Assembly: GCA_934202735.1 (NCBI GenBank)
Contig: CAKPYH010000004.1
Span: 73,407 to 137,406, forward strand
DNA length: 64,000 bases
Reading direction: 5' to 3'
Source: an uncultured Alphaproteobacteria bacterium
GTDB taxonomy: Bacteria; Pseudomonadota; Alphaproteobacteria; CAAHEQ01; UBA3637
Under the pieces are notes generated by a model, which made no database searches, had not been told where the DNA came from, and saw only the letters and a list, made by a program, of their open reading frames with translations. Below are positions 14,094-46,594 of the stretch, piece by piece. Within the stretch, counting starts at the first letter, position 1; each line of letters starts with the position of its first letter. Both the position numbers and the translations under genes were made by a program.

Positions 14094-14291
14094 TTAAAGA
14101 AATTCACATAAATCATCGTAAACCACATTGTTTCTATCAATTTGACGGACAGTTTCCGGGGTGTCGTGTTCATAATCCGCATACACAGGTTCGTATAAAA
14201 GGCAAAAATCACCGTTTATATTTGTTGTGCAACCGCTTAACGCGCTTAAGGCTAGCCAGGCTATCCCGACTTCTTTTAGCTGTTTTGACAT
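14094..14291 (-). CDS. o-spanin (Rz1-like outer-membrane lipoprotein)
   Basis: Signal peptide plus lipobox LSGC; start embedded out of frame in 3' half of upstream Rz-like ORF. Confidence 0.5.
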   Translation of the reverse strand: MSKQLKEVGIAWLALSALSGCTTNINGDFCLLYEPVYADYEHDTPETVRQIDRNNVVYDDLCEFL

Positions 14292-14430
14292 TGTCCATTG
14301 CTCCTTTCATGACTTTCACTTGTTCTGTTTCCTTGCCGCGCCGATAGCCGAGTATGTATAAAACAGCCACGGCTCCGGCGATTATCCAATATTTTGTTTT
14401 ATTCCAAGCTGTCATTATGAGTGTTAACAT
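14209..14430 (-). CDS. i-spanin (Rz-like), short
   Basis: N-terminal TM helix WIIAGAVAVLYILGY then charged periplasmic segment; overlaps Rz1-like gene. Confidence 0.4.
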   Translation of the reverse strand: MLTLIMTAWNKTKYWIIAGAVAVLYILGYRRGKETEQVKVMKGAMDNVKTAKRSRDSLASLKRVKRLHNKYKR

Positions 14431-14459
14431 TATTTTTTCCTTTCTTTTTTTGAATTGAT

Positions 14460-14993
14460 ATGTTACTTTCTCCTCAGGAGTATAAAATGAAAATACAATT
14501 ACGTCCTTTACGCCAACACGAAACGGAAGATGTGTATCTTCTTTTTCAAGCTATTCCAGCACAGGAGGAAGGTTTTGATAATTTTGCAAACGGCTTGTCA
14601 AAAACGGATTTTGAAAAGTTTATTTTACATAACATCGATCGGGCAAATGGTGTTGGGCTTGATAAAGGGTATTTAAGCCACACAATTTACATATTTTTTA
14701 TTGATGGGAAACCTGTTGGTATTTCCAAAATCAGGACCTATTCTGACAACACCCTATTAAAACGCGGCGGGCATATTGGTTGCGCAATCAGTCCCGCTTT
14801 CAGAGGAAAAGGCTACGGCACCTTATTGCTGGCCGAAACCATAAAAGAGGCTCACAAAAAAGGACTAAAAGACATTTTAATGGGATGTTATAGCAGCAAT
14901 TTACCCTCTAGTCATATGATTGAGAAGAATGGTGGTGTATTAGAAGAAAAAAGCAACAACATTTCATGGTATTGGATAAAACCAAAGACTTAA
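14460..14993 (+). CDS. GNAT family N-acetyltransferase (moron inside lysis cassette)
   Basis: GHIGCAISPAFRGKGYGTLLL acetyl-CoA binding motif; AT-rich, opposite strand to phage genes. Confidence 0.75.
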   Translation: MLLSPQEYKMKIQLRPLRQHETEDVYLLFQAIPAQEEGFDNFANGLSKTDFEKFILHNIDRANGVGLDKGYLSHTIYIFFIDGKPVGISKIRTYSDNTLLKRGGHIGCAISPAFRGKGYGTLLLAETIKEAHKKGLKDILMGCYSSNLPSSHMIEKNGGVLEEKSNNISWYWIKPKT

Positions 14994-15214
14994 TTTCGTT
15001 CCAAAAGTTTGTTATTTGATAGCACATCTTGTGTTTTTCTTTTCTTTAATCCAATATCTCGTGCGCCACTGACACCGAGTAAAATGCCCATGGCCGTTAA
15101 TAAATATTCCCAGTCTACTACCGGCAGGCCCGTTATAGGTGCGATCAGGCAGTTATGGAGGAATCCATAACACAGGATCCACCCGAGGACCGGGATCCAA
15201 AGCCGCTTTTTCAT
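14990..15214 (-). CDS. Holin-like protein (two TM helices, charged C-terminus)
   Basis: Two hydrophobic helices plus KKRK-rich tail; immediately downstream of endolysin candidate. Confidence 0.45.
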   Translation of the reverse strand: MKKRLWIPVLGWILCYGFLHNCLIAPITGLPVVDWEYLLTAMGILLGVSGARDIGLKKRKTQDVLSNNKLLERN

Positions 15215-15723
15215 GCCATTTGTATTCCTTTCAATAGAGTTTCATTAGAGTATGGCTGTATGCCGTTTTCATGTCTGATGATTGCCTTAATAAAGACCAT
15301 CAAAACACCATCTTCCACAAGGTCTACCGGTGTGTCCGGCGTGATGTTTAACTGCCGGGATACGCTGTCAATATACGAAACTGTCTCATTTTCGGTTGGT
15401 GGTGCATACTGGCTGATAATCTTCTGGGGCGTATTAAGATCATAAAGCCGCTGATAGTTCCGGAGTAATTTAGCCAACGCTCGGATCCCATATTCTGGCT
15501 TTTCAAATGCGCAAAAGGACGGATCCTGTTGCTTTCCGTCTTTCTTTAATCCTTTCCAGTCTGCTCCCCAACGGATGTGCCCGGGGTTATTATTTGCGAT
15601 GCCTCTCGGCACGCCAACACGTAAGCCTCGAACTTCGCCGTTGACTCGTTCTCGACAACTATCGTTTCTTATGCCGCGTGGTGTGTTCATTGTGCATTTC
15701 CCATAAAAGCTGATGTAATTCAT
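15211..15723 (-). CDS. Putative endolysin / peptidoglycan hydrolase (start uncertain, ORF open to 15810)
   Basis: Position between tail tip gene and holin/spanins; GIANNNPGHIRWG motif reminiscent of phage muramidases; assignment mainly contextual. Confidence 0.35.
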   Translation of the reverse strand: MNYISFYGKCTMNTPRGIRNDSCRERVNGEVRGLRVGVPRGIANNNPGHIRWGADWKGLKKDGKQQDPSFCAFEKPEYGIRALAKLLRNYQRLYDLNTPQKIISQYAPPTENETVSYIDSVSRQLNITPDTPVDLVEDGVLMVFIKAIIRHENGIQPYSNETLLKGIQMA

Positions 15724-15903
15724 CAATCTTTGTCTCCAGGCGATTGATGTTAACCTGAGTGGCATATTCTTTAGCCACCGCAACTTTGAACTCGTTGAGG
15801 TCACGGTCAAGGAGTTTTATTTCCTTGCGTTGCTCCCCGAGTTTATAAAAAAACCAGCCAAAGGCCGGTACGCAGATGATCTGTAAAAATTGAATCCAAT
15901 CCA
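15659..15903 (-). CDS. Small phage membrane protein with coiled coil (holin/antiholin-like), probable start MDWIQF
   Basis: N-terminal TM ICVPAFGWFFY then heptad-like charged region. Confidence 0.3.
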
Positions 15904-15917
15904 TGGTTTGTCCTTTC

Positions 15918-18149
15918 TTAATTAGCGTGAACTCTACTGTCCTCAATAACGGCAGTAATTTCAACCTTGTCCGAGCGCGGTTTAATCCCAGTCACTCGCG
16001 CTAATGTCCCCCATTTGTCCTGTATTCCAACGGCAAAATGAGTTCGTTCTGAATCAGTCCCAGTATCAATAGGAATATCGGGCATATCCAGTAAAATGAC
16101 TTCTGTCGGCAGCGATCCGGCTTTTACCCGGTATGGCCCGGACAATTCGCCAGTGCGAGTACGTAAGGCTAAATAGTGAGCTTGGCTCTCGGTAAATTCT
16201 AACGGTTCCGATAGCGTGAGTGTTGTATCATTTACTGATATTACTTCGCCACCGGTTCCCCAATGAGGCATATCGTGTGTGATTGAGATTAAATCCCCAT
16301 AACTCGGGATTAAGCCCTCCAGTTCGGTTGAAAATGTCACAATGCGCCGGCGATAGCGGTTGGCCAACGCCATATAGACTGCTTCCCGGAGAGCTTGGTT
16401 TTTATCGGTGCAACCGAATAACTCAACAGTTGCCGTCTTAGCCGAGGCCGATTCTGCAAAGGTTCCCGTCACTTCCGATGTTTTCCAAGTTCGGTCCGAA
16501 AAATACTGAACGCAAACACTGTCCGCCGTATCTTCAGACGGCATGATATATTGAATAGTCAGGCTGTTTTTGACGATGTTTCTTGGCCCAAACAGAGCCA
16601 CCGGTATGGATTTGGGTTCGTCCCGGACAAAGCGAACAATCCCTCCTTGAATGTAGGGAACGGAACGTCCGACTTTGCAGGTTCGCGACAAGGCATCATA
16701 AACCGTCAATTTTGAATCAAAGACAGCATTAAACATATCACCGCGTGCGGCCCAAATCTGATCCAGCCGGTATAAACCTTCAAGATCTATGGATTTGTCG
16801 GTCAGCCTTGCACCATAGTTGGCCTTTAAGATATCGGCTATTACCCAAGCAATAGAGCGTGTCGGCACTCTGTCGGTCCAGCCACCTGACGGCGACCATG
16901 TTGGCAATTTTCTTGTGACAATACAATTTACCATTCGGCTAGACCTTTGCGACAGGTTGTTGGTGGCTTTCATCTGAATAGCCAGCAGCGTCACATTCCC
17001 ATAATCCGGCGTTGATACAATGAAGCCTTTTGCCGAGACCCAACGGAGCTCGTGTCCAGCGCGTGAAGATGTGTCTTTGTCATCTAACCGCGTGGCCCGG
17101 ACTACGTATCTGCCTTTTGCCACCGAATAACCATATGTCCGGTAAAGACCGTTGACCGTATTACCTGATAATGTTTCGGTCCCGAGAGTGAACCAGTCAC
17201 CCAAAGGATTATCCTCATCATCAATTTTACGGGCATCAATCCGCCATTGGACCGATTTTGTATTCAAGCCACCACTGTCGTTTGCGTAATAAAGTCCGCG
17301 CTGACAGGCGATATCTATCTCAATCCGATCAATTTCACTTTCGGTCGGGTTCAACACAAACGGCCCGATTGTATTATTTTTTAAGAGTTCCTGACCGGCA
17401 ACTTCAGGCGAAGTTACCACATCATCACGAAAGAGCGTGTTCTTCTCGCCCGGATTGAGAATCTGATATGTTATCTCTTCAAACGAGCTGTTCGGGGTAT
17501 CTTCAATTCTGATTTGTTCCACATCGTATTCGCCTTGGCCAATGCAATGGAGTTGATAAACATATTGTTCATCGTTGATATAACCATAATAAGGGGTGCT
17601 TGCAAAATCCGGATAAATCAGATGTCGGCCATAAATCACAGGGATTGGATTACCCAAGCGCGCCTGATTCCCTTGGGCTTGCAAAGAATAGGTCGGGCTT
17701 TGTGTGGCAATAGCACTTACGGATCCGCCGCCGTTTAAGGACGCTTTGGGTGTTGGTACAAAAGTATTGACCAACATACCGCCGGCCACAGACACACCGG
17801 CCGCCGCCAATCCGCCCCAAACGGCACCATAGGCTGCTCCCACAATACCGCCGGTATAAACGGAAGCGACAACAACTGCGACCATGAGAACAACCTGCAA
17901 CGGGTTGGATGATTTGCCGCCACCTCCCAAAGGAAGCGTGATGAAGCAAACAAGCGAATCCGGCTGAACAATGTCATGCCAAAACTTTCTGAGGACCGCA
18001 ACACCGTTAATCATACAAATTGTCGGGCGTTTCAGGTCCACTTTCTGTTTTTCAATCAGTTGCCAGATCGTTTTCCCTTCATCAAGGACACGATCTATCC
18101 GCCCCTTGTTCGGCTGAAAAGGGTTTGTAATGTGTGAAAAATAAATCAT
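15918..18149 (-). CDS. Phage tail tip protein, lambda gpI-like N-terminus fused to gpJ-like host-specificity region
   Basis: Gly-rich hydrophobic stretch LPLGGGGKSSNPLQVVLMVAVVVASVYTGG like lambda tail assembly I C-terminus, followed by ~600 aa J-like region. Confidence 0.55.
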   Translation of the reverse strand: MIYFSHITNPFQPNKGRIDRVLDEGKTIWQLIEKQKVDLKRPTICMINGVAVLRKFWHDIVQPDSLVCFITLPLGGGGKSSNPLQVVLMVAVVVASVYTGGIVGAAYGAVWGGLAAAGVSVAGGMLVNTFVPTPKASLNGGGSVSAIATQSPTYSLQAQGNQARLGNPIPVIYGRHLIYPDFASTPYYGYINDEQYVYQLHCIGQGEYDVEQIRIEDTPNSSFEEITYQILNPGEKNTLFRDDVVTSPEVAGQELLKNNTIGPFVLNPTESEIDRIEIDIACQRGLYYANDSGGLNTKSVQWRIDARKIDDEDNPLGDWFTLGTETLSGNTVNGLYRTYGYSVAKGRYVVRATRLDDKDTSSRAGHELRWVSAKGFIVSTPDYGNVTLLAIQMKATNNLSQRSSRMVNCIVTRKLPTWSPSGGWTDRVPTRSIAWVIADILKANYGARLTDKSIDLEGLYRLDQIWAARGDMFNAVFDSKLTVYDALSRTCKVGRSVPYIQGGIVRFVRDEPKSIPVALFGPRNIVKNSLTIQYIMPSEDTADSVCVQYFSDRTWKTSEVTGTFAESASAKTATVELFGCTDKNQALREAVYMALANRYRRRIVTFSTELEGLIPSYGDLISITHDMPHWGTGGEVISVNDTTLTLSEPLEFTESQAHYLALRTRTGELSGPYRVKAGSLPTEVILLDMPDIPIDTGTDSERTHFAVGIQDKWGTLARVTGIKPRSDKVEITAVIEDSRVHAN

Positions 18150-18265: not shown

Positions 18266-18643
18266 TTATTCATAATTTTCTAATTCGGTTGTTAATGATT
18301 CCACAATCCGATCTTTTTCTTTTTTAGATAATGTTTTTACATTATCTCTAATATGATTTCTTAAAGAAAGCAGATCTTCATAATCTAGATTTCCAACAAC
18401 TTTGGCATTTTTAATTTCATTAGGTTCAAAATGAAAAACTCTATTGCAAGATACAAAACTATCATGTTCTAGGTAATTATTCTTTTTTTTAGCCAAAGGC
18501 ATACATTCATATAATTTTCTATTTAAAGAATTTATACAAAAGAATAAATTATCGTCAACTACAACACAAACAGAGTATTTATAATTGCTAGGAATAATTT
18601 GCTTATTAAAAAGATACAGGACGTTTCCAATTTCTAATGCCAT
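18266..18643 (-). CDS. Putative toxin partner of Panacea-domain protein (unknown fold)
   Basis: 125 aa, AT-rich, start 2 nt after stop of upstream Panacea gene. Confidence 0.3.
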   Translation of the reverse strand: MALEIGNVLYLFNKQIIPSNYKYSVCVVVDDNLFFCINSLNRKLYECMPLAKKKNNYLEHDSFVSCNRVFHFEPNEIKNAKVVGNLDYEDLLSLRNHIRDNVKTLSKKEKDRIVESLTTELENYE

Positions 18644-18644
18644 T

Positions 18645-19163
18645 TTAGAAAACCATTTTTTCTGTAAGATCTCCCATGTCTTCTAAATCGGCAAGTACAT
18701 CTTCGTTATTAATCATATCTTCATAAGGTATGGGACAAGAGCGTGTATTTTTTAATTCTTCTTTGTGTTTTTCCCATGCTGGATGAATATGATTCTTGTT
18801 TTTTACTTCGGAAAATGATAAATCTGCGTATTCTGAAATTCCATGTTCCAAAGCCTCTATATCCGTATCAGAAAAAACATCTAATGTTGGACTCGAGTTA
18901 GCTTTAAAACCGTTCTTTGAACATTTATAAAAGGGAACATTTTGCGTAATTTCTAGTAAATCTTTCATTAAGCTTGGAACGGTACCATAATTCATCGCTA
19001 CATAATTTTCCCCATAAATAGGACGCCCGTATTTATTTAAATGATAACAATCAGCATCAAACATCACTTTCATAATGTTATATTTATTGATACCTGGCTT
19101 TCTATTCAGTATCCAAAGCAAACACTGCATAGCCTTTTCTGGATTCTTTGTAAACTTTATCAT
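18645..19163 (-). CDS. Panacea-domain (DUF4065, SocA/GepA-like) putative antitoxin
   Basis: IMKVMFDADCYHLNKYGRPIYGENYVAMNYGTVPS matches Panacea core (KLLY.AD..HL...GRP..G..Y.A...GPV). Confidence 0.55.
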   Translation of the reverse strand: MIKFTKNPEKAMQCLLWILNRKPGINKYNIMKVMFDADCYHLNKYGRPIYGENYVAMNYGTVPSLMKDLLEITQNVPFYKCSKNGFKANSSPTLDVFSDTDIEALEHGISEYADLSFSEVKNKNHIHPAWEKHKEELKNTRSCPIPYEDMINNEDVLADLEDMGDLTEKMVF

Positions 19164-19291: not shown

Positions 19292-19696
19292 TTATTTTCC
19301 TTTTACCCTATAATAGCTATCAATTTGCCAGCCGCACAGGCGCATAGACGGCAAATCCTGAAACACCACACCACTATCGTGGCAACAATGGAGAACGCCT
19401 CCACCATCAACATCTAGCCACAGGCCAGCATGAACGGGATATTTAGATTGCCTAAGCAAAACGACATCACCGTCTTGCGGCTTTTCAACTTCATTAAATG
19501 CCCGGAAAGCAGGATCCTCTTTGAATGCAATTAAAACGCTCCGGAGATTATCCGGATTAACGTTTACCGCCGGCACATCTATGCCGTATTCGTGCTTCAG
19601 GATCCAGCGCACCATTCCCCAACAGTCAAATTCATCAGGGCCTTGCGCACCGGCAACCCAGGGCAAGCCTATATATTTACAAGCAAAATGTGTCAT
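19292..19696 (-). CDS. Phage tail assembly protein K-like NlpC/P60 peptidase
   Basis: FDCWGMVRW (catalytic Cys) and HAGLW (His) spacing typical of NlpC/P60; position before tip protein. Confidence 0.65.
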   Translation of the reverse strand: MTHFACKYIGLPWVAGAQGPDEFDCWGMVRWILKHEYGIDVPAVNVNPDNLRSVLIAFKEDPAFRAFNEVEKPQDGDVVLLRQSKYPVHAGLWLDVDGGGVLHCCHDSGVVFQDLPSMRLCGWQIDSYYRVKGK

Positions 19697-19716
19697 TTAA
19701 TTACTTTTTTATCTGA

Positions 19717-20520
19717 TTAATTAATTATAGTTTTTACGATATTAATGAGTGCAGAGATAAGGTAGTAAAGAGATGTAAATGCAATAACTCCACCGATAAA
19801 AGGATTTGTATGAAAAAAATTAAAAAAAGCAAAAAGATATCCACCATTTAATTGCCAATAAGAAGTATTTGTTTTTAAGTGGTTATCAGCCACCCTCTGC
19901 AAAATGTTTGCAAAAATATCAACTTTTCTTAGCGTTGATTGATGAAGTTTAATATAATTTTTTTCTTCAAAAGCTTGAGCCTCTTCTTCTCCAGACAAAA
20001 AATTTGTATCAGTTATTTTATTTTTTTTCACTATAGAAAAAAGACGTGGGTGCTCTATATAACCAACGCCATATGCATCTATCAATAAACGAGCCAGATC
20101 CTGTTTCTTATCATCTTGTATAACATATGGTTTTCCACCTAAGATTTTATAACGTAATTCAATGGCTGCAAAACCAAAATTTTCATCTCGCATATTCCAA
20201 TGAACGAATGTTTTATCTTCATTTTTGTGTACAAAATCATAAAATCTTTTGAGCATAGATTTTTCCAGTTTGTCGTAAGATTTTTCTATTTTCCTCTTAT
20301 CTATGGCTTGTAACTCTGCTTCCTTGTGTATAGAAAAAGAACGTGTTTGACCATCATTTAATTTCCTCACAGCTATAGATGTTATTTTCGGTGAGCTACC
20401 ATCTGTGCGATCATAGAAACTTTCACAAGAATAATGTATGAGTAAAACGTTTTTAGAATCCGCCATCAAAGTTCTGATCTGAGCTAAAGCATCTTTTCTT
20501 CTTTTTAAATTGATTTTCAT
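19717..20520 (-). CDS. AT-rich moron: unknown cytosolic domain plus C-terminal two-TM hairpin (candidate abortive-infection effector)
   Basis: C-terminus GGYLFAFFNFFHTNPFIGGVIAFTSLYYLISALINIV; no recognisable motifs in N domain. Confidence 0.3.
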   Translation of the reverse strand: MKINLKRRKDALAQIRTLMADSKNVLLIHYSCESFYDRTDGSSPKITSIAVRKLNDGQTRSFSIHKEAELQAIDKRKIEKSYDKLEKSMLKRFYDFVHKNEDKTFVHWNMRDENFGFAAIELRYKILGGKPYVIQDDKKQDLARLLIDAYGVGYIEHPRLFSIVKKNKITDTNFLSGEEEAQAFEEKNYIKLHQSTLRKVDIFANILQRVADNHLKTNTSYWQLNGGYLFAFFNFFHTNPFIGGVIAFTSLYYLISALINIVKTIIN

Positions 20521-20580: not shown

Positions 20581-21123
20581 TTATCGTGTTAATCCCGGAT
20601 AGTTTTTAACGGTATAGTTTTCTGACGGAAAAGACCTGTTCCCGATATCCATCATGCGGGCCGTAGCCGTTATTTTATAACAGTCCACATGAATATCAGT
20701 AATAACCAAGGTTATCGGCGGATCCATCTGCGGCGTTGTCAGGTCGTCAGACAGATATGGCCGGTATGTCAGCTCGATCATATCCTGTGTTTCAATAGCC
20801 CGGTCAAGATAAGCGATCATCTCGGTTGAAACGTTGTCGATCGTGACCGAAATCTCAGGTGTCGGCGTGTTGTTGACCGGTGGCAATTCCAGATCAAACG
20901 CCATGGCGATAAATAAAACGGCTTGACCCGCGTCCAACGGGGCTGAATCTTCCAACACACATAAGTGGTCTTGATAATCCCGCACGACCCGAATAGCGGT
21001 CGGCGCACCCAAAGCGTCCTTAAAACTAGGGTGGCGCAGTTCCAATGTGTGCAAAATCACAACATCGCTGGGCGCAGAAGCATAGGCTTCTTTCAAAGCT
21101 TGGGAAAGCGTTTCATCTGTCAT
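20581..21123 (-). CDS. Phage minor tail protein (L-like position)
   Basis: Phage-type GC, placed between tail fibre cluster and K-like gene; no diagnostic motif. Confidence 0.35.
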   Translation of the reverse strand: MTDETLSQALKEAYASAPSDVVILHTLELRHPSFKDALGAPTAIRVVRDYQDHLCVLEDSAPLDAGQAVLFIAMAFDLELPPVNNTPTPEISVTIDNVSTEMIAYLDRAIETQDMIELTYRPYLSDDLTTPQMDPPITLVITDIHVDCYKITATARMMDIGNRSFPSENYTVKNYPGLTR

Positions 21124-21126
21124 TGT

Positions 21127-21873
21127 TTATCCGTTATTTGAGTTGGTTGCATCGGGCTCGTTATACCCCAAAAAGACAACTTTGACATAACCGCCATTAC
21201 CCAAAAAGACCTTGTTGTTAAAATCTGTCAAATCATTGATTTTAACATCTATGGAATTGCCAAGCTTGGGTGTATTTAAGTCGTCCCCAGGATAACCGCT
21301 GCCCCGCATAAAATATGTTGTATCATTATTTAAAAACAAGTTGCCGTTCTTGGTATCCGTATAAAGCGGGATATGGGTTTGACTGACGGTTGCATTGATA
21401 ACGGCCGTGCCTCCAATCCCCACTTCGTTGGGACAATCTTCGGCCATAGCCCCTTGCCGGGAATAGGCTTCTTGCCCTCCATTGGCACACAAGTACAAGA
21501 CATCATCAATATAACTGAGATCCGAGTTCATCTTGGAATTATAAACGCCTTTTGGCTCTCCCACGTGATAGGTATGTGTCCCGGCAGACAAGCGAAATAC
21601 GCCCCGGATAAATGCCCCACTGCCACCCGAAGCGCCAAAAGCCGACCACCCAAAAGCCCATTCATTGGCTCCACCCGAACCGATCAGAGTACATAAACAC
21701 CAAGCATCTTGATCCAGTTCAAATGTCCCGTTGGCACCGATTTCACTGCTTTCGGCCAGAACGGTATCTTTTGTATAAATCCCCTTTGGATAGGCCCTTG
21801 CCAATAATTTTTGCGTCAGTATAATCATATTTTCTCCTTTATGTTTTGTCCGCATCGGCATAGCATGTGGCAT
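21127..21873 (-). CDS. Glycine-rich phage tail protein (fibre/tip associated)
   Basis: Gly-rich repeats GSGGANEWAFGWSAFGASGGSGAF; tail module context. Confidence 0.3.
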   Translation of the reverse strand: MPHAMPMRTKHKGENMIILTQKLLARAYPKGIYTKDTVLAESSEIGANGTFELDQDAWCLCTLIGSGGANEWAFGWSAFGASGGSGAFIRGVFRLSAGTHTYHVGEPKGVYNSKMNSDLSYIDDVLYLCANGGQEAYSRQGAMAEDCPNEVGIGGTAVINATVSQTHIPLYTDTKNGNLFLNNDTTYFMRGSGYPGDDLNTPKLGNSIDVKINDLTDFNNKVFLGNGGYVKVVFLGYNEPDATNSNNG

Positions 21874-22072
21874 AGATTAAATCCGACACACCTTCGCTGT
21901 CTTGATAAGCTACGGCATTATCAGTAATGCGCCATTCTGTCCCCTGATAGGCACTGCCGTCCGCATTATATAATATCGTATCGGCGATAATCTCGGTTGT
22001 TTTGGTATAAATAACTTCATCGATCATACGCTCTTTGACCCGCCAAGCGTAAAGCGTCCCCGCTTCATCTAA

Positions 22073-22648: not shown

Positions 22649-22659
22649 AAATTTCTCCT

Positions 22660-22950: not shown

Positions 22951-22963
22951 TATTTTTCCTTTC

Positions 22964-25125: not shown

Positions 25126-25211
25126 ATCATTTTTAAAATCCTCATAACCGGCTTTTGGCTGTCAAGGTTCGCCAAAGCATCATCACGCCACTTTGCCGCT
25201 TTTTGCATGGC

Positions 25212-29321: not shown

Positions 29322-29374
29322 AATACGCTTAAGCTCATCAGGAAAAACAGAATGACACCGTTTTGAAAGTTGAA

Positions 29375-37987: not shown

Positions 37988-39052
37988 TTATTCTTCGCTA
38001 TTTCGTATATATGAAACACCACGTGTTGTTCCTAGTTTTGTTAAATATCCTTTCTTTATCAAACTTTGCACAGATTTACGAATTGTTTCAGAATTTTTTC
38101 CCGTCTTTTTAACAATGTCAGCAATACTCATTTCTGAATTGCCTGCAAACTGGCTCATAATTTCACGTGCAGTTGGAGATAATTTATCTGTATCTACTTT
38201 TTTGATGTTTTTAATTTTATCTTCTAATGCATGTTTTTGCTTTTGAAGTGATGTGACAAAGAAGGTTAACCAAGGTTCATAATCAACCTTATCACTCCAT
38301 ATTGTTTTTTGTGTTCCACGTAAGGCCCGATAATAAGCATCTTTACTTGCTTCGATAATTGATTCCATTGAAGTATACGGCATATAACTGTATTTGTTTT
38401 TTAGCATCAATAAAATAGTCAAGGCACGTGACATACGACCATTTCCATCTGTAAATGGATGTATTGACAGGAAATGAACGAGGAATATCCCAATTGTGAT
38501 AATGGGATGCAAAAATCGATCTTCAAAAGTATCGTTTGTCCATTTAATTAATTCCCTCATCAGGTGGGGTGTATCAAAAGGAGAAGCAGTCTCAAAAATA
38601 GTTCCGATTTCTTTTCCTGTTGCATCGTAAGCAGCTACCCGATTACTATCCTTTTTGTATTCACCACGATGACGTTCATCCTTAGAAGAGTACTTCAAAA
38701 GAATTTGATGTAGCTGTTTAATATAATTTTCCGTTAGAGGGATATCATTGTAATTTTCAAATATCGTATTGATTAAATCAGAATATCCTGCAACTTCTTC
38801 CTCATCACGAGACTTAAAAAACTTTTTGTTGATATGACTAAATAACTCCTCAATTTCAGCATCGGTCATTTTATTACCTTCAATACGGTTAGAAGAACCG
38901 ACAGACTCAATCGTTGCAACCCGTTTCATAACTTTTAATTCGGCAGGTGTTAATTTAGATAAATCTATACTCCATGAACCAACGAATTGATCAATCTCAG
39001 CAATTTTATTTAACATATCTGGTGTGATAACAATATCTTTAATCCTTGGCAT
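37988..39052 (-). CDS. Fic/DOC family protein with C-terminal winged-helix domain
   Basis: HPFTDGNGRMSRA canonical Fic motif HPFx(D/E)GNGR. Confidence 0.85.
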   Translation of the reverse strand: MPRIKDIVITPDMLNKIAEIDQFVGSWSIDLSKLTPAELKVMKRVATIESVGSSNRIEGNKMTDAEIEELFSHINKKFFKSRDEEEVAGYSDLINTIFENYNDIPLTENYIKQLHQILLKYSSKDERHRGEYKKDSNRVAAYDATGKEIGTIFETASPFDTPHLMRELIKWTNDTFEDRFLHPIITIGIFLVHFLSIHPFTDGNGRMSRALTILLMLKNKYSYMPYTSMESIIEASKDAYYRALRGTQKTIWSDKVDYEPWLTFFVTSLQKQKHALEDKIKNIKKVDTDKLSPTAREIMSQFAGNSEMSIADIVKKTGKNSETIRKSVQSLIKKGYLTKLGTTRGVSYIRNSEE

Positions 39053-39131: not shown

Positions 39132-40649
39132 TTACTCTATAGACCCTATTTTATCATTATTCGGCGACGTTTTTTCCTTCTTTCGGGTTAAATTTTCTAT
39201 TGTTAAACCTAATTCGGCGAGTTTAGCTTTTTCTCTCGCACGTTGTTCCAAAACTTCTTCCCAGTCCAAGCCTTGACCGGCACATTCGGCCTCTAATGTA
39301 GAAAGCCCGATATCCATTCGGATTTGGCAGGCCTGAGCTTCTTTGACCGGGTCAACCCAACCGCGACCTGGACCGATCCACTTACATCTTGTGTAAGCAT
39401 AGCGGTTCTCGTAAAAGTCCGGTGCATCAACCAAGCCTTTATTGACTGCTTCTTCCAGCCAAAGCTCATAAACCGGCGTAGCCCAGTAAGTTGATAGCCA
39501 TTGCCGGCGACCGTTAAAGTATCGCCAAGCCTCTAATAAAGCAGAACGGGCGAACGAGTAATTGGTCTTTGAGAAGTCTTTTAACAGCAATTCATAAGGA
39601 ATGTTCAACCCTGTGCCAATATGTCGGAGCAAGTTTTCAACGAAAGCACCATATGCCGAGTTCGGGCGAGACGGGGTAAATGGGGCGACCTTATCTCCGG
39701 GGAATATCGGGATAATCGAGCCACCCTCTAACTTAACTTGCCAATCTTTTTTGGCATTCAAGTATTCATCGCTTGAACCACCGAACAGTTCGTTTAAACC
39801 TTCATTATCCATTGGTGTTTCTATAAATGCGGCGATCATCGCGTTGACAATTGCGGCTTGAAGCTCAGATCGTTCATAATGATCCAACATTTTGAACATC
39901 GGCATTATGGAGCTCAGAACAGGTTTCCCACGGGATTAACCGATACGGTTGATGTCGTGAACGTGTAGAACTCGTCTCCGGCCAAAACTCGTGGTTGCCG
40001 GAATACGCTCCCAAGACTTTAGGTCTGTCCAAAAGTCGCCCGGGTGGTCCTTTTGAATATAGTAGGCAATCGGTGCGCCATACTGATCAATTTCAATACC
40101 ACCGCGGAGGGTCTTGCTATCCGTTTGACCGTTTGGATTTGAGAGCCGGTCCGGTTCCACCAATTGAATTGCGGTAGAGAACGGTCGATCTTTCAGCCAA
40201 AGTGGTATGGCCAAAGCCTCACCATTAATCAGGCAAGATTTGAAAACTTGTGTTGTTAGGCCATGAAAAGTTAAGGACTTGGCCGCATCACATTCAAAAG
40301 TTTCGGACCAGGATCGCCATAAACTTTCAACATGTGCCTGCCATTCTTCTTCCCATTCCTTGGTTTTGCCCAGTAGCCGATAGTCAGACTTGGCCGATAA
40401 ACGAAACCCGGTGCCGACAATGTTGTCGGACAAGGTTTGCATAGCACCGGCGGCAATTCCATGATTACGCGTTAAGTCACGCGACCGGGCAACGATCGTG
40501 TCCAATTCCGGTAGTAAGTCGCTGTCGGCTGAACCGCGGCCCGGTAGCCATGAGGCAATTTCTCGCAAAGTTTGCGAAGCTGCTTTGTGTGATGTGTCTG
40601 TCATTATTTTATCCAATAAAAAAGCCAGGTACAAAGCCCGACTTTTCAT
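39132..40649 (-). pseudogene. Lambda-type phage portal protein (gpB family) split into two ORFs
   Basis: ORF 39936-40649 matches portal N-half, ORF 39132-39905 C-half; 30-nt gap with stop. Confidence 0.65.
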
Positions 40650-40693: not shown

Positions 40694-41920
40694 TTATTGT
40701 TTTTGACGCATTCTTTGAAGTAGCATCATCTTATTTGGCGTATCTTGTAATGTACTAATAAAAAAGTTTCTAAACGCAGTAACATCTTCTTGTTTTGGAG
40801 TAAATAATTTCCAAATATGATTTTTTAACATAAGATTTGAATCCCGTGCCGCAGGCTTCATATGAGTATTGTTATACAAATTAAGACCTATGCGCTCCGC
40901 ATAGTACTCACTTCTTATAATAGATCCGACAAAATCATTTACAGAAGGATGGCGATAGCTTTTTGATTTTAAATAACGTACATAATCAATACCTGATTTT
41001 TTTAAGTGTTCAATGGCGTGTTCCAATAACTTATGCCCCGGATAATTGAAAGGTGTCATAAAATCAAATTTACTTAAATCAAACCGCTGTTCTTTTTCAC
41101 CTACAGAAAAACGATAATAATTAATCCAATTATATTGAATCGCCCCACATAAAAAATTCAAATCAGTGTTTTTCATTTTTTCGGTAAACCAATCCATCGT
41201 CTTTCCTGTACCAACATTATCATCAAGCAACACAACAGATTTTGCTTGAGCTAATTTTTCAGGGTTAGACATTAAATCAAAAAAATCATTTTTCTGACTT
41301 AATAGCGCTAACTCTTTTTCATCTTTTATGTATGTACTTTTTAAAAAATTACTATATTCCGCTCCATACATTGATTTCAAAAAAGGTCCAATATACAGGG
41401 AACCATATCCAGGCGTAATGATATGCGCATTATCCGATAAAGATAAATTTTGACAACAAATATACAATAAAGCCTTATTATCCAACTCAATAGCTCTCTC
41501 AGCTGACATTTTATTACCAGCGGGTAAAGTATCTTTTGACGGGACTATATCATTTTTTGAAAAAATACGAATGATGTTAGTTGCATCATCTTCTAAACAT
41601 CGTTTGCTCTTTTCGTATTCGTCAGAATTACTTTTATTTATGATATATTCAGGCAAGTTTGCATAATACACTTTTGCAGAACAATTCAGCATATTTTCAA
41701 GAATCATAAAGTTTCGCTTACTTGGTTCCCGGGTCAGAAACTTCTTTAGACATTCTCGTCTATTTGAAAGTTCGGTTGCGGTTTTTGGTTCATAATAACC
41801 AGAAGACCTTGAAAGGTATTCTTTTTCCGAAATCGGCGTGACAAAACTTTCTAAACCGACCACATCTTGTAAAGTCATAATCCCTAATACGTCAAATTCA
41901 GAAAGCTCTAATTGTTCCAT
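40694..41920 (-). CDS. Type I phosphoribosyltransferase-domain protein (408 aa)
   Basis: VVLLDDNVGTGKTM = PRPP-binding motif (cf HGPRT VLIVEDIIDTGKTM). Confidence 0.55.
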   Translation of the reverse strand: MEQLELSEFDVLGIMTLQDVVGLESFVTPISEKEYLSRSSGYYEPKTATELSNRRECLKKFLTREPSKRNFMILENMLNCSAKVYYANLPEYIINKSNSDEYEKSKRCLEDDATNIIRIFSKNDIVPSKDTLPAGNKMSAERAIELDNKALLYICCQNLSLSDNAHIITPGYGSLYIGPFLKSMYGAEYSNFLKSTYIKDEKELALLSQKNDFFDLMSNPEKLAQAKSVVLLDDNVGTGKTMDWFTEKMKNTDLNFLCGAIQYNWINYYRFSVGEKEQRFDLSKFDFMTPFNYPGHKLLEHAIEHLKKSGIDYVRYLKSKSYRHPSVNDFVGSIIRSEYYAERIGLNLYNNTHMKPAARDSNLMLKNHIWKLFTPKQEDVTAFRNFFISTLQDTPNKMMLLQRMRQKQ

Positions 41921-41931
41921 ACAAATAGCCT

Positions 41932-42552
41932 TTATTTCATTTGTTTTAAAAAATGAACTAAACTATTCAATTGTTTTTCAAACTCATATCTTGTAAAAAC
42001 AGTCTCTGTCTTAGCCTCTTTCCCAATAGAATGTAAAATATAACGATCAACTTTTTCCAGCGCTTGGCGATAAAGTGGATTTTGAAGGGCAGAAATATAA
42101 ACTTCATCAACTAAATCATCATATTCAACGCTGTGGCGATTTATTTTTTCCCCTTGCCAAAAAACCTCGCCCGTTTCTTTCCAGTCATAAGAAGATGCAT
42201 TTTGAATATAAACAGCATCTAACCCCGTATAGGAAAAAACATATTTTTGCACTTGGGGCTCTGGAAATTTAATTCCTTGAAAAAAAGATTCGATACTGTG
42301 CAACTGCTCTCCCCTCAATTCAAACTCGTAAGGGAATAAGTTAGACAGCAATTTTGACAGCGGATTTTTTAATTTATAGCCAACGTTAATCCATGAATCG
42401 CAAACAGGTATAATGTTGTTTTCTTCGTCTTCCAAAGGAAAACCGTCACAAAAAGCTTTATCATGAACGTATGTAATTTCTTTTTGAGAAAAAGCATAAT
42501 TTTTCTTAAACTCTTGAAACAAGCGCAGTTCTTTTTGAATACTTCTTTTCAT
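41932..42552 (-). CDS. NADAR (YbiA-like) domain protein
   Basis: FELRGEQLHSIESFFQGIKF matches YbiA FAAWPIKVDGKTWPTSEHYFQAQKF core. Confidence 0.5.
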   Translation of the reverse strand: MKRSIQKELRLFQEFKKNYAFSQKEITYVHDKAFCDGFPLEDEENNIIPVCDSWINVGYKLKNPLSKLLSNLFPYEFELRGEQLHSIESFFQGIKFPEPQVQKYVFSYTGLDAVYIQNASSYDWKETGEVFWQGEKINRHSVEYDDLVDEVYISALQNPLYRQALEKVDRYILHSIGKEAKTETVFTRYEFEKQLNSLVHFLKQMK

Positions 42553-42639: not shown

Positions 42640-42876
42640 TTAAAAACTCGCTTTCAAAATCCTCCGACGACAGGTTGCTGAGCCTTCGACTGCCGCAATT
42701 TGTGATTTAAGAGAACTGATATAACTTTCAAGGGCCGTCCGGCTGGTTTGATTGTAAGTGGTGGAACCGAAATTCCCGACACTGACCGAGACTTCCTTTT
42801 CACCGATCATCAATTTATGGTAGGCTTCTTCGGCCTCAGCCAGCCTGGTTTTCAAGGTTTCTACCTTTATAGCCAT
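42640..42876 (-). CDS. Phage head-tail joining protein gpW-like
   Basis: LKTRLAEAEEAYHKLMIGEKEVSV..ESYISSLKSQIAAVEG resembles lambda W; lies between terminase and portal. Confidence 0.55.
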   Translation of the reverse strand: MAIKVETLKTRLAEAEEAYHKLMIGEKEVSVSVGNFGSTTYNQTSRTALESYISSLKSQIAAVEGSATCRRRILKASF

Positions 42877-43484
42877 GGATCATTTACCTTTGTTGGTTGA
42901 ATTTGAATGAATTTCGGTTGTTTTTTAATCTTTATCTTTTCGCTTGTTTGGGTCGGTATAGCCGATTCAAGCTCTTGCCAGCCGCGCTCGGATATCCGAT
43001 CAAGACCATATATCGCCGCACCGGCACGCGCATAAACGCGGCAGTCCAACGCTTCGTTTCTTCGAGCCGGGTCCTTTTCCCAGACCGATTTTGGATAACC
43101 GTTGGTCACCTTGACTACCTGGCGTTCGGCCGTCAGTTGTTTGAAATACTTCTCAGCGTATGCCGGGAAGTGACAGCGGCCGAACTGCGAGGCATCTTCG
43201 CCCACACGTTCTATCTTCAGCCACCGGTAAAGCTCGGTTTTGATAACCGGACCGGACACGTTCCACACCTTCAGGCCTTTCTTTTTCGTATCAGCCTTTA
43301 AAGTGGACAGGATCATCGCGGTGTCGCGGCTTTGACCTTTGATGGCGACAACAGTCCTTGGCGCATTGGCCCGGGCACCATTGCCACCCCAAGCAGCCTG
43401 ATTAAACGGACGGACAAACAAATACACATCTTGCGGGACATAAATGGTATTGAGTTTGATGTATATCCGATTTTCAAAATTCAA
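42867..43484 (-). pseudogene. C-terminal fragment of terminase large subunit (gpA-like nuclease region); N-terminus replaced by AT-rich DNA
   Basis: Position upstream of W, NEALDCRVYARAGA-type segment, only 205 aa. Confidence 0.4.
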
Positions 43485-43524
43485 ACAAATTAATAAAAAT
43501 CCTATTAGACAAGGATTAAAGTCT

Positions 43525-43941
43525 TTATTTCTTTAACCGCATGGCATTAGGAATCTGTTGAAAACCAAACTTTTTATAAAAATTCGGCAAACATGGGTTC
43601 TTTGGATCATAGAACAAACTAACCGTGGCAAAATTTTGCGCTTTAACATACTTAATGATTTCTTTCATCAAGATCGTTCCAATGCCTTGCCCATGATAAT
43701 TTGGATGAACCACAACATCATAAATCATACACATTTCTGAATCATCTACACATCGGGCAAAGCCTACAGTTTTTCTTCCATCCAATACAGACACCATAAA
43801 GGTAGATTGCTTTTTGACTACAGGCCATTGATCCGGACGATAGTTTCCCCACTTCAATAAGGAATGGATTTCGTCTATATCTTTTGTGTTAATGCGTTTT
43901 CCAATTTTAACTGATTTTTTCATTTTAACCACTCCTTGCAT
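43525..43941 (-). CDS. GNAT family N-acetyltransferase
   Basis: VVHPNYHGQGIGTILMKE motif. Confidence 0.75.
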   Translation of the reverse strand: MQGVVKMKKSVKIGKRINTKDIDEIHSLLKWGNYRPDQWPVVKKQSTFMVSVLDGRKTVGFARCVDDSEMCMIYDVVVHPNYHGQGIGTILMKEIIKYVKAQNFATVSLFYDPKNPCLPNFYKKFGFQQIPNAMRLKK

Positions 43942-44408
43942 GGGTTGCTCTGTTTTAAAATGTCTTTTAAGAAGTCATCAAATCTATTATCACAATTAGT
44001 AGCCCATCCGTACTCTGAATGTTCAGGACTTAGAGTTATCGTAGGCTCGCTTGATAATATTATTTCATAATTAAACTGAATATCATGTTTAATCCTATCT
44101 GTTTTAGAAATCTCTTCCGACACTCCTATTAACTTTACTTCTTTTTTGGAAATATCAAGGTCAACTTCCTCTTTCAATTCACGTTTAAGTGCTGAACATA
44201 AACTTTCTCCAGTTTTAACACCACCACCGGGAAATTCCCAAACATTTGGTAAAAAGTTATCTGCGGGGGATCGTTTTACAAGTAGAACTGTACCATTGTA
44301 AATGATTAATGCACAAACAGATAGTTTTATTTCTTCATTCATTAGATTAACCCCCTCTAATCCTTTTTCGTTTATCTCTTTTAACTGTTGCACCGTTAAT
44401 TTGAACAA
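43920..44408 (-). CDS. Nudix hydrolase
   Basis: GGGVKTGESLCSALKRELKEEVDL Nudix box. Confidence 0.75.
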   Translation of the reverse strand: MFKLTVQQLKEINEKGLEGVNLMNEEIKLSVCALIIYNGTVLLVKRSPADNFLPNVWEFPGGGVKTGESLCSALKRELKEEVDLDISKKEVKLIGVSEEISKTDRIKHDIQFNYEIILSSEPTITLSPEHSEYGWATNCDNRFDDFLKDILKQSNPCKEWLK

Positions 44409-44426
44409 AGCCCGACGATCCCAACG

Positions 44427-44752
44427 TTAAAAAACTTTTTTGATTTCGATACCGACTACTCCAAATTTATTTTGGGCTGCTGGTTTATAAAATTCCTCCA
44501 ACACCCTCAACAATTCTTCTTTTGAAGAAACACCTGCTCGATTAGGCTGAATAATGCTACATAACTCATCAAAATTTCGAGCGTGGTATAAATTTTTTAC
44601 AACTGCAGTAAAAGTATCGTTAGAATTTGAGGCATTGGCAAAAATGATGTTATCTCCAACCTTGATTTTTTACGCTTTTCATCAAAAAGACGCAATTCTA
44701 TAGTTTTACTACCTGATTTTAACAAATTATAATATTTTGTTTTAACATTCAT
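44427..44752 (-). pseudogene. ASCH-domain gene with frameshift in T6/A6 homopolymer
   Basis: Manual translation: MNVKTKYYNLLKSGSKTIELRLFDEKRKK (GxKxxExR) then frame change near 44666-44671, continues ..AVVKNLYHARNFDELCSI.. Confidence 0.45.
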
Positions 44753-44772
44753 GCTATGCATTATATTTCTCC

Positions 44773-45348
44773 TTGCATAATAAAAAAATAAAAGTTATAC
44801 TATCTATGTATAGCAAAAGGAGAAAAAATACGCAAATAAAAACTTATAAATCTTTTCACTCTGAACACAGTCTTTTATACAAAGATATGTTGGATTTAAC
44901 ATTGTCCATTAACAAGACTTACCCGAGATATACCGCTTGGTATAATAATACTTTTATTCCAGGATTAAAAAAGAATGAACGAATGTATATTGTCGCTTTA
45001 GACGATCAAAATATCCTTGCAGGCTGTATTTTTGCAAAAAATACACCAGATGAAAAAAAGATATGTACCTTATTCGTTAATCCTTTGTTCAAACGTCAAG
45101 GTATCGGAAAAAAGCTTTTAGAAACTGCCATAAAAGAACTAGGAGAACTACCTTTAATCACCGTATCTAGCAGAAATATTTCCCAATTAAAACCTTTATT
45201 AGATCATTTTGGTTTTCATTTATCCGCTACCAAAAAGGGAATATATGGCCAAAATGATACAGAGTTTTATTTTAATGATAAAAAAGCAGATTTAATACAA
45301 AAAGGATTACTTCCAATTCTTATTCAACAAATGCAACACTCAAGATAA
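44773..45348 (+). CDS. GNAT family N-acetyltransferase
   Basis: LFVNPLFKRQGIGKKLLETAI motif. Confidence 0.65.
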   Translation: MHNKKIKVILSMYSKRRKNTQIKTYKSFHSEHSLLYKDMLDLTLSINKTYPRYTAWYNNTFIPGLKKNERMYIVALDDQNILAGCIFAKNTPDEKKICTLFVNPLFKRQGIGKKLLETAIKELGELPLITVSSRNISQLKPLLDHFGFHLSATKKGIYGQNDTEFYFNDKKADLIQKGLLPILIQQMQHSR

Positions 45349-45495
45349 CTGTGTTAAGTCATTTTATGTTGGCAACATTTTTGCGTGTTTTGTTGCACCG
45401 TTAAATGGACAATGTGGTTTCTTTCTTTCATTAAATGTATGCGAAAAACGCCACCAACCGACGGATAATAAAAATATGGTTTCTTTTTCAATAAA

Positions 45496-46218
45496 CTATC
45501 CCCTAATTCCTAACAGGACAAAAGGAGTTGCATTATTAGGTGATAATTTATCCCTTTCTATCCAAACTGCACCATTTGAATCCAATCCATCCCCTTTTTG
45601 GGATGGCTTCCCCGCTATCATACAATCATACAGGATGCCAAAATGTTGCATAACGCCCTGTTCCCCGCTTTCTTTTGTAAAATCTGAAAAAATAACCTCT
45701 TTCTTCCTTTTGTTGCGAACAGAACACAACATGCAATTTGTTTCCTCCCTAATTTCACGAGCAACCGTTTGTTCGGGACTTTCACCTATTTCCGGACTAC
45801 CGCCGGGCAAGTCATAAAGCCCTGTATATGGCCCCCGCGCCTTCCGAATCACCAATACCTTATTTTGTTGCATAATGACACCGTAAACACCCCGATGTGT
45901 TCGCGTTACACGGCGATCACGTATAAGAAGATGGGCCTTTCCCTGCTCCAATTTATACAGATAATTTTCTATTTTTTGATTGCGATAAATTTTATGATTT
46001 GCTACCGTAATTAACACATTTTCCCCTTCTTTTTGGCGCCTTAAAATAGCGATACAGTCAGCATGACATGTTTGTCCGGAAATTTTTCCCAAAATATAAA
46101 CAGGAATTTTTGACTTATTTTTTTCCAAAAGACACCCTTGATAAACCTTTGATGATTTTTTTTCTACCTGATGAATGACAATTTTTTGTCCTAAATAATG
46201 GGTTGGAATATGATCCAT
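45496..46218 (-). CDS. Nudix hydrolase with ~110 aa N-terminal extension
   Basis: GLYDLPGGSPEIGESPEQTVAREIREETN Nudix box in C-terminal half. Confidence 0.6.
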   Translation of the reverse strand: MDHIPTHYLGQKIVIHQVEKKSSKVYQGCLLEKNKSKIPVYILGKISGQTCHADCIAILRRQKEGENVLITVANHKIYRNQKIENYLYKLEQGKAHLLIRDRRVTRTHRGVYGVIMQQNKVLVIRKARGPYTGLYDLPGGSPEIGESPEQTVAREIREETNCMLCSVRNKRKKEVIFSDFTKESGEQGVMQHFGILYDCMIAGKPSQKGDGLDSNGAVWIERDKLSPNNATPFVLLGIRG

Positions 46219-46476
46219 ACCTACTCTCCTTTACAATCAACATAATTGTTTAATAACCCAAATTTTAAAATACAAAAATTTGATTGTCAAATCTTTTTTA
46301 ATTAATTGGTTTGCAGTCATTTTTAACTTTGATGTAGAATAATTTCATTCCCAAAAGAATTAGTTGAGGAATTAGTGAAGTAATAAAATCAAGCACTTTT
46401 AAGATGATGAGTTAGATTGTTAGCGAAAATGGGTGCTTTTTGTGTTGAGTCCAATCGAACCAGCTTAAATGCTTGT

Positions 46477-46510
46477 AAATAAAAGAAAAAGTCGCCTTTA
46501 AGGGCGACTT
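46477..46510 (-). terminator. Intrinsic terminator of tRNA-Lys
   Basis: Minus strand: hairpin aagtcgcc/ggcgactt (8 bp) followed by TTTTTCTTTTATT. Confidence 0.55.
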
Positions 46511-46517
46511 ATTCAAA

Positions 46518-46594
46518 ATGGTGAGCGTGCTGGGATTCGAACCCAGGGCCACCTGATTAAAAGTCAGGTGCTCTACCAGCTGAGCTACACACTC
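46518..46594 (-). tRNA. tRNA-Lys (anticodon UUU), CCA encoded
   Basis: Manual fold: acceptor GAGTGTG/CACGCTC, anticodon loop CTTTTAA, T-arm CTGGG-TTCGAAT-CCCAG, discriminator A, CCA. Confidence 0.9.

Follow-up and report, generated by a model that had tools for sequence, protein, structure and literature searches.

The prophage remnant and its genes

The interval examined here (positions 14094–46594) lies in a 64-kb window, the whole stretch of DNA analysed, which comes from a metagenome contig of 112 kb (ENA ERZ27287494 k141_227068) belonging to an uncultured gut alphaproteobacterium. It holds the remains of a lambda-like siphophage, placed in the chromosome between glyQ and a tRNA-Lys gene, with all of the phage-like genes on the minus strand. 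The sequence of the locus in the Logan assembly of run ERR7738553 is identical to that of the ENA contig. The G+C content (GC) alternates sharply along the interval, with phage-derived segments (15.4 kb at 0.466) interleaved with nine blocks of low-GC cargo (17.1 kb at 0.313). The cargo makes up more than half of the interval (17.1 of 32.5 kb) and was overlooked in a preliminary description of the locus, which had reported a prophage with a dismantled head module and intact tail and lysis modules. The features are listed in Table 1. Families were assigned by scans against Pfam, PHROGs, PADLOC and Rfam (gathering thresholds) and with ARAGORN, and the absence of genes was assessed using tblastn across the window. 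The closest intact-looking phage contig, L044 from IMG/VR, was used as the reference for gene lengths and absences.

Table 1. Features of the interval between glyQ and tRNA-Lys (window coordinates; ORF, open reading frame)
Feature	Position	Strand	Basis and remarks
Spanin pair, Rz1-like and Rz-like	14094–14291; 14209–14430	-	last phage genes, 110 nt from glyQ
Cargo block 1 (74-aa protein/Rz junction): GNAT acetyltransferase	14460–14993	+	Pfam Acetyltransf_1; GC 0.38
74-aa protein (p74); endolysin; holin-like 81-aa protein	14990–15214; 15211–15690; 15659–15904	-	lysis genes
J-like tip/host-specificity protein, 743 aa, full length	15918–18149	-	Pfam Phage-tail_3, FNIII-A_GpJ
Cargo block 2 (K/J junction): SocA/Panacea antitoxin-like (18645–19163) and 125-aa partner	18266–19163	-	Pfam SocA_Panacea; GC 0.29
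K-like NlpC/P60 tail protein, full length	19292–19696	-	Pfam NLPC_P60
Cargo block 3 (L/K junction): 267-aa protein	19717–20520	-	phage family phrog_8766, E 5e-73; GC 0.29
DUF1833 L-like protein	20581–21123	-	Pfam
Variable fibre region	21127–23910	-	
158-aa virion protein	23925–24401	-	phrog_384
Tape-measure (TMP) pseudogene	24472–27056	-	Pfam TMP_3 and Tape_meas_lam_C on two ORFs in different frames
Cargo block 4 (GT/TMP junction): P-loop kinase (27106–27693); ASCH/methyltransferase-like, 543 aa (27690–29321); radical-SAM fragment, 198 aa (29375–29971)	27106–29971	-	Pfam; GC 0.31
Tail assembly chaperones, G and T frame	30186–30722; 30022–30372	-	phrog_313
Tail tube protein, 313 aa, full length	30722–31663	-	Pfam Phage_tube_2, E 7e-51
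Cargo block 5 (between terminator remnant and tube): 845-aa UvrD-like ATPase	31737–34274	-	Pfam UvrD_C_2, AAA_19
Tail-terminator pseudogene	34349–34684	-	alignment with L044, L023, L031
Cargo block 6: 210-aa protein (p210) and 148-aa NUDIX (NUDIX148)	34721–35991	-	Pfam NUDIX; GC 0.31
Prohead protease (S49), N-terminal fragment	36076–36597	-	Pfam Peptidase_S49, profile positions 5–47 of 154 only
Cargo block 7 (portal/protease junction): 47-aa ORF (36827–36970, +); 248-aa reverse transcriptase (36951–37697, +); SoFic-like Fic/HTH (37988–39052, -)	36827–39052	both	Pfam RVT_1, Fic
Portal pseudogene, lambda family	39132–40649	-	Pfam Phage_portal_2 split over two ORFs
Cargo block 8 (W/portal junction): 408-aa phosphoribosyltransferase-like and 206-aa T4 gp30.3-like proteins	40694–42552	-	Pfam Phage_30_3, weak Pribosyltran; weak PADLOC PRTase_III-A; GC 0.32
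gpW	42640–42876	-	Pfam gpW
Terminase large subunit, C-terminal fragment	42867–43484	-	Pfam GpA_nuclease
Cargo block 9 (beside the tRNA): GNAT, NUDIX, ASCH fragment, GNAT (+), NUDIX	43525–46218	mixed	Pfam
tRNA-Lys(UUU)	46519–46594	-	ARAGORN, Rfam
tRNA-Lys with the 144 nt on its 3' side	46375–46594	-	

The lambda-like head and packaging profiles detected in the window were GpA_nuclease, gpW, Phage_portal_2 and Peptidase_S49, and the damage to the corresponding genes was largely as had been described. The terminase is a C-terminal fragment that covers only positions 156–291 of 294 in GpA_nuclease and corresponds to aa 452–646 of the 646-aa terminase of L044. The two portal ORFs (39936–40649 and 39132–39905) are in the same frame and are separated by a single CAA to TAA change at 39936–39938, a codon that reads CAA (Gln) in four relatives. 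The prohead protease breaks off after about 166–173 aa and retains aa 1–166 of the full-length protein, which has 370 aa in L044 and 370–384 aa in the relatives. The lack of a capsid gene was also confirmed. The terS product, the decoration protein, the major capsid protein and the 124-aa and 191-aa adaptor proteins of L044, where decoration and major head protein profiles match, found no tblastn match anywhere in the 64-kb window. The gene for the 191-aa adaptor, a neighbour of the tail terminator, is gone from the window. None of the L044 genes located upstream of terS had a match in the window either, and scans with Pfam, PHROGs and PADLOC, which covered the larger ORFs of the interval and part of the small ones, revealed no gene for an integrase, a repressor or replication.

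The claim that the tail and lysis modules are intact stood for most of their genes. The tube protein is 93% identical to that of L044 over aa 1–313, and the analysis of frames and heptamers located a -1 slippery site, A_AAA_AAC, at 30303–30309 in G/GT. The fibre ORFs are full length, with 92–98% identity to those of L022; the K-like protein can be aligned over aa 1–134 with 88–98% identity to its relatives, and aa 1–743 of the J-like protein are 83–91% identical to prophage copies in metagenome-assembled genomes (MAGs) of gut Alphaproteobacteria. The L-like protein and the 158-aa virion protein are likewise full length. Compared with their relatives, the 74-aa protein, the endolysin (phrog_873, E 2e-51), the holin, Rz and Rz1 (phrog_1275, Rz-like spanin) are also full length.

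The claim failed for the tape measure and the tail terminator. The tape-measure gene, which looked intact in the preliminary description, carries a CAG to TAG change at 25212–25214 and, 55 nt downstream, a 1-nt deletion between 25158 and 25157. All nine of the aligned relatives have both the CAG and the extra base, and the two lesions are private to the window. They leave pieces of 614 and 217 aa, compared with one 871-aa ORF in L004 (the faecal phage record MT836000), and the N- and C-terminal parts share a frame in every other relative checked. The terminator gene was identified through its homologue in L044, the gene just upstream of the tube gene, which belongs to phrog_4204 (tail terminator). 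In the window about 26 of its N-terminal codons have been replaced by the end of a low-GC gene, and there is a 1-nt deletion at 34584/34585.

Relatives of the remnant

A search with the J-like protein recovered 17 loci in IMG/VR and 22 in GTDB genomes. The matches at 73–91% identity were almost all in MAGs of uncultured Alphaproteobacteria (human, Hadza, rabbit, roe-deer and rumen), and those at 50–54% came for the most part from MAGs of Micavibrio and Rhodospirillales. In IMG/VR, about 600 stretches were matched by the portal fragment. IMG/VR contigs of 30–48 kb, such as L044, contain the whole order terS-terL-W-portal-protease-decoration-capsid-adaptors-terminator-tube-G/GT-TMP. The genes of the window, in the order terL-W-portal-protease-...-terminator-tube-G/GT-TMP-...-L-K-J-lysis, are collinear with L044, L023 and others, with protein identities of 70–97%. 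No genomic copy among the relatives is located beside glyQS, and the prophages are at other chromosomal sites. Other decayed copies of the family were found in L024, L032, L041 and L043. The remnant belongs to a mobile family of temperate lambda-like siphophages that is common in uncultured gut Alphaproteobacteria and has no fixed domesticated locus.

Two further features were seen in members of the family. In L023, a prophage in an alphaproteobacterial MAG, a bAvd gene and a gene for a 349-aa reverse transcriptase (14636–16692), the signature of a diversity-generating retroelement, are located just past the lysis cassette, and have no counterpart in the window. A second full or partial copy of Rz/Rz1 was found about 2 kb downstream of the first in L041 (11783–12107 and 13772–14096) and in L025 (13307–13492 and 15525–15635), which points to remnants of this phage family lying in tandem or nested within one another.

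Differences between strains

Strains sharing the locus were found in other samples by exact-protein look-ups with TraX, NUDIX240 and glyQ. Look-ups with the J-like, UvrD-like and 158-aa proteins gave matches only in assemblies from the same individual. Since the same neighbourhood recurs in other samples with flanks that are 99–100% identical, both junctions of the island are real; the junction between Rz1 and glyQ, for example, recurs in samples L137 and L138. The state of decay differs between the sister strains (L125, L126, L127, L134 and L137). In L126 the tRNA is followed by about 400 nt of unique sequence and then by the portal fragment; the block with the reverse transcriptase and SoFic genes is missing, and the strain has its own frameshifts in the tube gene and at the G slippery run. 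L125 has lost G, the tube gene and most of the tape-measure gene. It retains only the N-terminal part of TMP, the kinase, ASCH, fragments of the radical-SAM and GT genes, p210, NUDIX148 and fragments of the protease and portal genes, which are located between the copies of a 150-bp repeat. Given the frameshifts in L126 and the deletions in L125, the tail is not conserved across the strains, nor is it under selection. Odd deletion junctions are shared, such as protease fragment-NUDIX148-p210-terminator fragment-UvrD, which indicates that the head had already been lost in the common ancestor.

Between strains, the cargo blocks are mostly 98–100% identical and the phage blocks interleaved with them 85–95%. 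In 100-nt windows against L126, the identity is about 100% through the radical-SAM and UvrD cargo and 74–97% across GT-G-tube (30000–31680), and the shift falls within about 100 nt of the junctions between cargo and phage core. Codon-based counts on the alignments between strains gave synonymous divergences (dS) of 0.00–0.06 for the flanks and most of the cargo, and 0.21–0.94 for the phage blocks. The ratio of nonsynonymous to synonymous divergence (dN/dS) was 0.04–0.26 for most phage blocks, with Rz at 0.47. The many synonymous differences in the phage blocks go with strong purifying selection. Examples of dS and dN/dS are 0.52 and 0.06 for the tube gene, 0.77 and 0.06 for G, and 0.42–0.46 and 0.06–0.08 for the terminase fragment, and the C-terminal part of the portal gene gave dS values of 0.24 and 0.94. 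The divergence of the phage blocks is too large to have arisen in place since the strains split, and the dS of 0.21–0.94 at low dN/dS implies exchange with alleles that evolved in functional phages. Repeated recombination of the remnant with related phages, patch by patch, is the most economical explanation. Exchange of diverged DNA by phage recombinases has been shown experimentally between lambdoid phages and the defective prophages of E. coli (PMC3945230).

Cargo blocks and the junctions they occupy

The occupancy of the junctions between phage genes was surveyed across about 100 related loci. Those variably filled with low-GC DNA were terL/W, W/portal, portal/protease, the junction of the 191-aa adaptor and the terminator, terminator/tube, tube/G, GT/TMP, TMP/M, L/K, K/J and p74/Rz. 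Related loci have 0–3 occupied junctions each, while the window has six of the 13 that can be measured, and in addition three replacement blocks. DUF1833, K and J adjoin in most relatives, and portal/protease, GT/TMP and p74/Rz are also contiguous in several. Most of the cargo blocks in the window lie at junctions where related phages carry accessory genes as well. In MT836000 (L004 6261–8829) a 2.7-kb insert between the tube gene and G encodes five proteins which, examined by eye, appear to include an ArsR-like regulator, membrane proteins or a permease and a thioredoxin-like protein, a likely example of cargo with no role in defence.

Overall, the cargo genes include three GNATs, three NUDIX genes and one ASCH fragment. 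Block 1 was found neither in strain L137 nor in the relatives, where p74 and Rz are contiguous. The K/J junction, the position of block 2, is closed in most relatives and has different inserts in L007 and L027. Block 3 separates DUF1833 and K, which adjoin in the relatives. In block 4 the radical-SAM fragment has a CNFHCWYC motif, and PADLOC returned weak matches to pVip and to the viperin-associated kinase VakA. The same junction is filled by other inserts in L025, L031, L033, L044, L051 and L052, and a scan of metagenomes with the kinase recovered two more remnants that keep an ASCH fragment, the kinase and the N-terminus of TMP (L149 and L150), as well as one short contig bearing the kinase. 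The UvrD-like ATPase of block 5 has weak GajB matches and differs from its L126 counterpart at one nucleotide over 845 codons. Block 6 stands where the C-terminus of the protease, the decoration and capsid genes and the adaptors would be, and its junctions are common to L125 and L126. The NUDIX genes of block 9 match PADLOC PDC-S07, and the block is 98–100% identical in L127 and L134. A search for a motif or repeat shared by the cargo boundaries returned only AT-rich chance matches.

Block 7 is missing in L125 and L126, where the remnant of the portal gene directly abuts that of the protease gene. Its Fic protein (Pfam Fic and HTH_24) matches the PADLOC SoFic model nearly end to end (E 1.2e-50, aa 13–348 on profile positions 25–349 of 361) and, with its C-terminal winged helix, is a predicted defence protein. 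Distant Fic-like genes, at 25–30% identity, were seen at the portal/protease or K/J junctions in L027, L048 and L050. The 248-aa reverse transcriptase matches the retron-type models of PADLOC only partially, with E values of about 1e-17, and belongs to a family of small reverse transcriptases of about 245–260 aa with 77 database matches. Four distant loci share a conserved region upstream of this gene (window 36600–37697, L141 4640–5753, L144 4600–5765 and L146 4600–5789). In each the gene is preceded by an ORF for a hydrophobic protein of 40–54 aa with a conserved ribosome-binding site, and covarying stems are found upstream of that ORF; the other neighbouring genes vary. The Rfam scan detected only the tRNA and no RNA upstream of the reverse transcriptase. 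The region with the covarying stems may be a retron-like non-coding RNA. Assignment of the enzyme to the diversity-generating retroelements was rejected, as it has no significant similarity to the reverse transcriptase of L023 (E 0.28).

The tRNA-Lys boundary and the flanks

The tRNA-Lys(UUU) gene was found at the edge of the element as described and, as it is on the minus strand, its 3' end faces the element. A boundary at this gene was upheld by comparison of the strains. The sequences of L126 and L129 cease to match the window at 46516, exactly the 3' end of the tRNA, and in L125 a 150-bp direct repeat (1838–1987 and 9627–9778, 88.8% identity) is located on both sides of the remnant. The repeat corresponds to window positions 46375–46524, the region 3' of tRNA-Lys together with the last 6–7 nt of the tRNA. 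The basis first proposed for the boundary, a degenerate 24-mer at 46441–46464 regarded as an att remnant, did not hold: 373 of 1000 shuffled sequences reach its score in alignment with the tRNA. There is also no further copy of the tRNA 3' end elsewhere in the window. The defective prophage remnant sits at a variable site linked to tRNA-Lys. In none of 17 related loci was there a tRNA less than 10 kb away from the J or portal genes, hence the phage family has no general preference for tRNA-Lys in the stretches examined. The NUDIX240 gene is outside the repeat in L125, whereas the window has it between the remnant and the tRNA gene, and a rearrangement links the two orders.

The left flank (window 1–13983) has a GC content of 0.34 and carries glyQ, glyS and two genes resembling class II aminoacyl-tRNA synthetases; the right flank (46595–64000), with TraX, RNase J, Obg and DnaB, has a GC content of 0.49. 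The exact GlyQ protein was found on only six contigs, and TraX in 61 blocks of the collection. As exact glyQ matches are so much fewer than those of TraX, the left side, with its low GC, could be a variable region in its own right. A scan of GTDB genomes with glyS, seeking an empty site, turned up no relative. A cluster at 1370–10914 on this side includes the two synthetase-like genes (1370–2794 and 3013–4233) and genes for a methyltransferase, a 706-aa GFO/IDH/MocA protein, an FAD-binding protein and a DegT aminotransferase. It looks more like a sugar- or amino-acid-modifying pathway than plain housekeeping.

Interpretation of the locus

The locus is very probably a temperate lambda-like siphophage reduced to a defective remnant, which has been loaded with cargo and exchanges its phage blocks. 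The remnant is collinear with a functional phage, and its virion genes have been lost (terS, capsid, decoration and adaptors), truncated (terL and protease) or turned into pseudogenes. Such an element would be unable to make virions or tail particles. The cargo rather than the tail would be what persists in the host population. Homologous recombination with functional relatives, newly arriving or already resident in the same host, would replace the phage blocks piece by piece, and every block brought in would go on to decay in its turn.

Several observations weigh against this interpretation. Most of the tail-tip, fibre and lysis genes are full length, which implies that the tail began to decay recently or has decayed only in part. 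The lesions in the tape-measure gene are known from assemblies, produced by two pipelines from the read set of one individual. Two cargo genes depart from the low divergence of the rest, namely NUDIX148 in L125 (dS 0.23) and p210 in L126 (dS 0.10), and the search for donors of the core blocks in the window found none closer than about 88–96% nucleotide identity. The exchange may have taken either of two directions, with replacement of the phage blocks or with a sweep of cargo over diverged remnants. Finally, several of the cargo genes resemble anti-phage defence genes, but a role in defence is predicted from profile matches only, several of them weak.

The preliminary description had offered two alternatives, a decaying prophage that keeps its tail or an F-type (flexuous) tailocin, in which the head has been shed and a working tail and lysis cassette are under selection to kill competitors. 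Only the decaying prophage, without the intact tail, was borne out. Loss of the head genes is what a tailocin would predict and, judged by Pfam and PHROG matches and full-length alignments, the tube, G/GT with its slippery site and M-, L-, K-, I- and J-like tip proteins are complete, as are the fibres, holin, endolysin and spanins. The Pseudomonas F-type pyocins similarly combine a lambda-like tube, G/T chaperones, tip proteins, fibres and a lysis cassette with no capsid gene. Their terminator is encoded elsewhere and they still kill without it (PMC13455828). The genome of the window may also have a terminator copy outside the locus. However, the tape measure is part of the F-pyocin tail tip (PMC13455828), and in the window this gene has a stop codon and a frameshift. 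Lesions in tail genes had been named in advance as evidence against a tailocin, and they are present in the terminator as well, which is truncated and frameshifted and has lost the adjacent adaptor gene. The head has been lost raggedly, with fragments of terL, portal and protease persisting. No regulator was found, and the locus varies by strain. The strain-specific lesions and deletions in the tail argue against a selected tailocin, and the relatives are ordinary prophages at other loci. A tailocin is not supported, because the tail genes carry inactivating lesions, and we consider it highly improbable.

Metagenome assembly is very unlikely to have produced the mosaic pattern or the lesions (or both) as artefacts, whether by switching between the remnant and co-occurring phages or by joining two organisms at the tRNA. 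The difference in GC content between the left and right flanks would fit such a join, the Logan contig of the same run stops 24 nt short of the tRNA, and related phages abound in gut samples. Independent samples nevertheless repeat the join at the tRNA, with both sides present in L127 and cargo running into the tRNA in L134, and the Rz1-glyQ junction is likewise repeated in two samples. Alleles at about 88% identity would also be unlikely to share the k-mers of 31–141 nt needed for path switching, and the diverged blocks bear strain-specific stop codons and frameshifts that are not expected in functional phages. A phage satellite or other helper-dependent element, for which a related phage would supply heads and packaging, would account for the structural homology to circulating phages and for the signs of frequent recombination with them. 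It is extremely improbable given that the tape-measure, terminator and portal genes of the element itself are broken, that deletion progresses among the strains, and that genes for an integrase, replication, redirection of packaging and terS were not found in the profile scans or by tblastn. A gene transfer agent resembling RcGTA was also rejected, as the head genes are missing and the relatives occur as phage contigs of full size and as prophages in a variety of places.

An extension of the defective-remnant interpretation, which we regard as possible though on the doubtful side, is that the dead prophage serves as a scaffold for defence and accessory cargo. The conserved phage genes flanking each cargo slot would act as homology arms, and a meeting with a related phage could swap phage blocks and perhaps bring in new cargo. 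Selection would retain the cargo, and the remnant would end with more of it than any viable phage could package. In this proposal the 47-aa hydrophobic ORF, the 248-aa reverse transcriptase and the structured upstream RNA may form an undescribed retron-like system.

Comparison with known systems

Temperate phages and their satellites carry morons and hotspots for accessory and defence genes, such as those of P2 and P4. The cargo resembles these in that variable genes of distinct composition, some of them defence-like, are located at fixed intergenic sites between conserved phage genes. In this case, however, at least ten junctions are inside the head-tail operon of one phage family, and a dead copy, with at least six of them occupied and 17 kb of cargo, holds far more than any of the relatives sampled, which have 0–3 occupied. 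Genomic islands linked to tRNA genes can grow by tandem accretion, as cis-mobilisable elements. As in such islands, the variable content begins exactly at the 3' end of tRNA-Lys, and in L125 a repeat containing the tRNA terminus flanks the remnant. Unlike them, no integrase was found in the window, and strains do not agree in how the NUDIX cluster and the remnant are ordered.

A further parallel is offered by the cryptic lambdoid prophages of E. coli K-12, such as Rac, DLP12 and Qin. They too are chromosomal remnants of temperate siphophages that have lost lysogeny and head functions, keep scattered structural, lysis and accessory genes, and exchange DNA with infecting relatives by relaxed homologous recombination (PMC3945230). 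The remnant in the window differs from these in its host, an uncultured gut alphaproteobacterium, in that more than half of it is low-GC cargo at nine junctions inside the structural operon, and in that its strains keep the cargo and exchange the phage blocks.

With the failure of the tailocin candidate the locus offers no new bacteriocin lead. It has instead allowed the junctions for accessory genes within the structural operon to be mapped for a family of gut phages that is widespread, and has brought to light a family of small reverse transcriptases with a conserved upstream RNA and micro-ORF. It also provides evidence from a natural population that, in an uncultured gut lineage, the phage-homologous DNA of a prophage remnant has been exchanged with functional phages while its cargo was kept.

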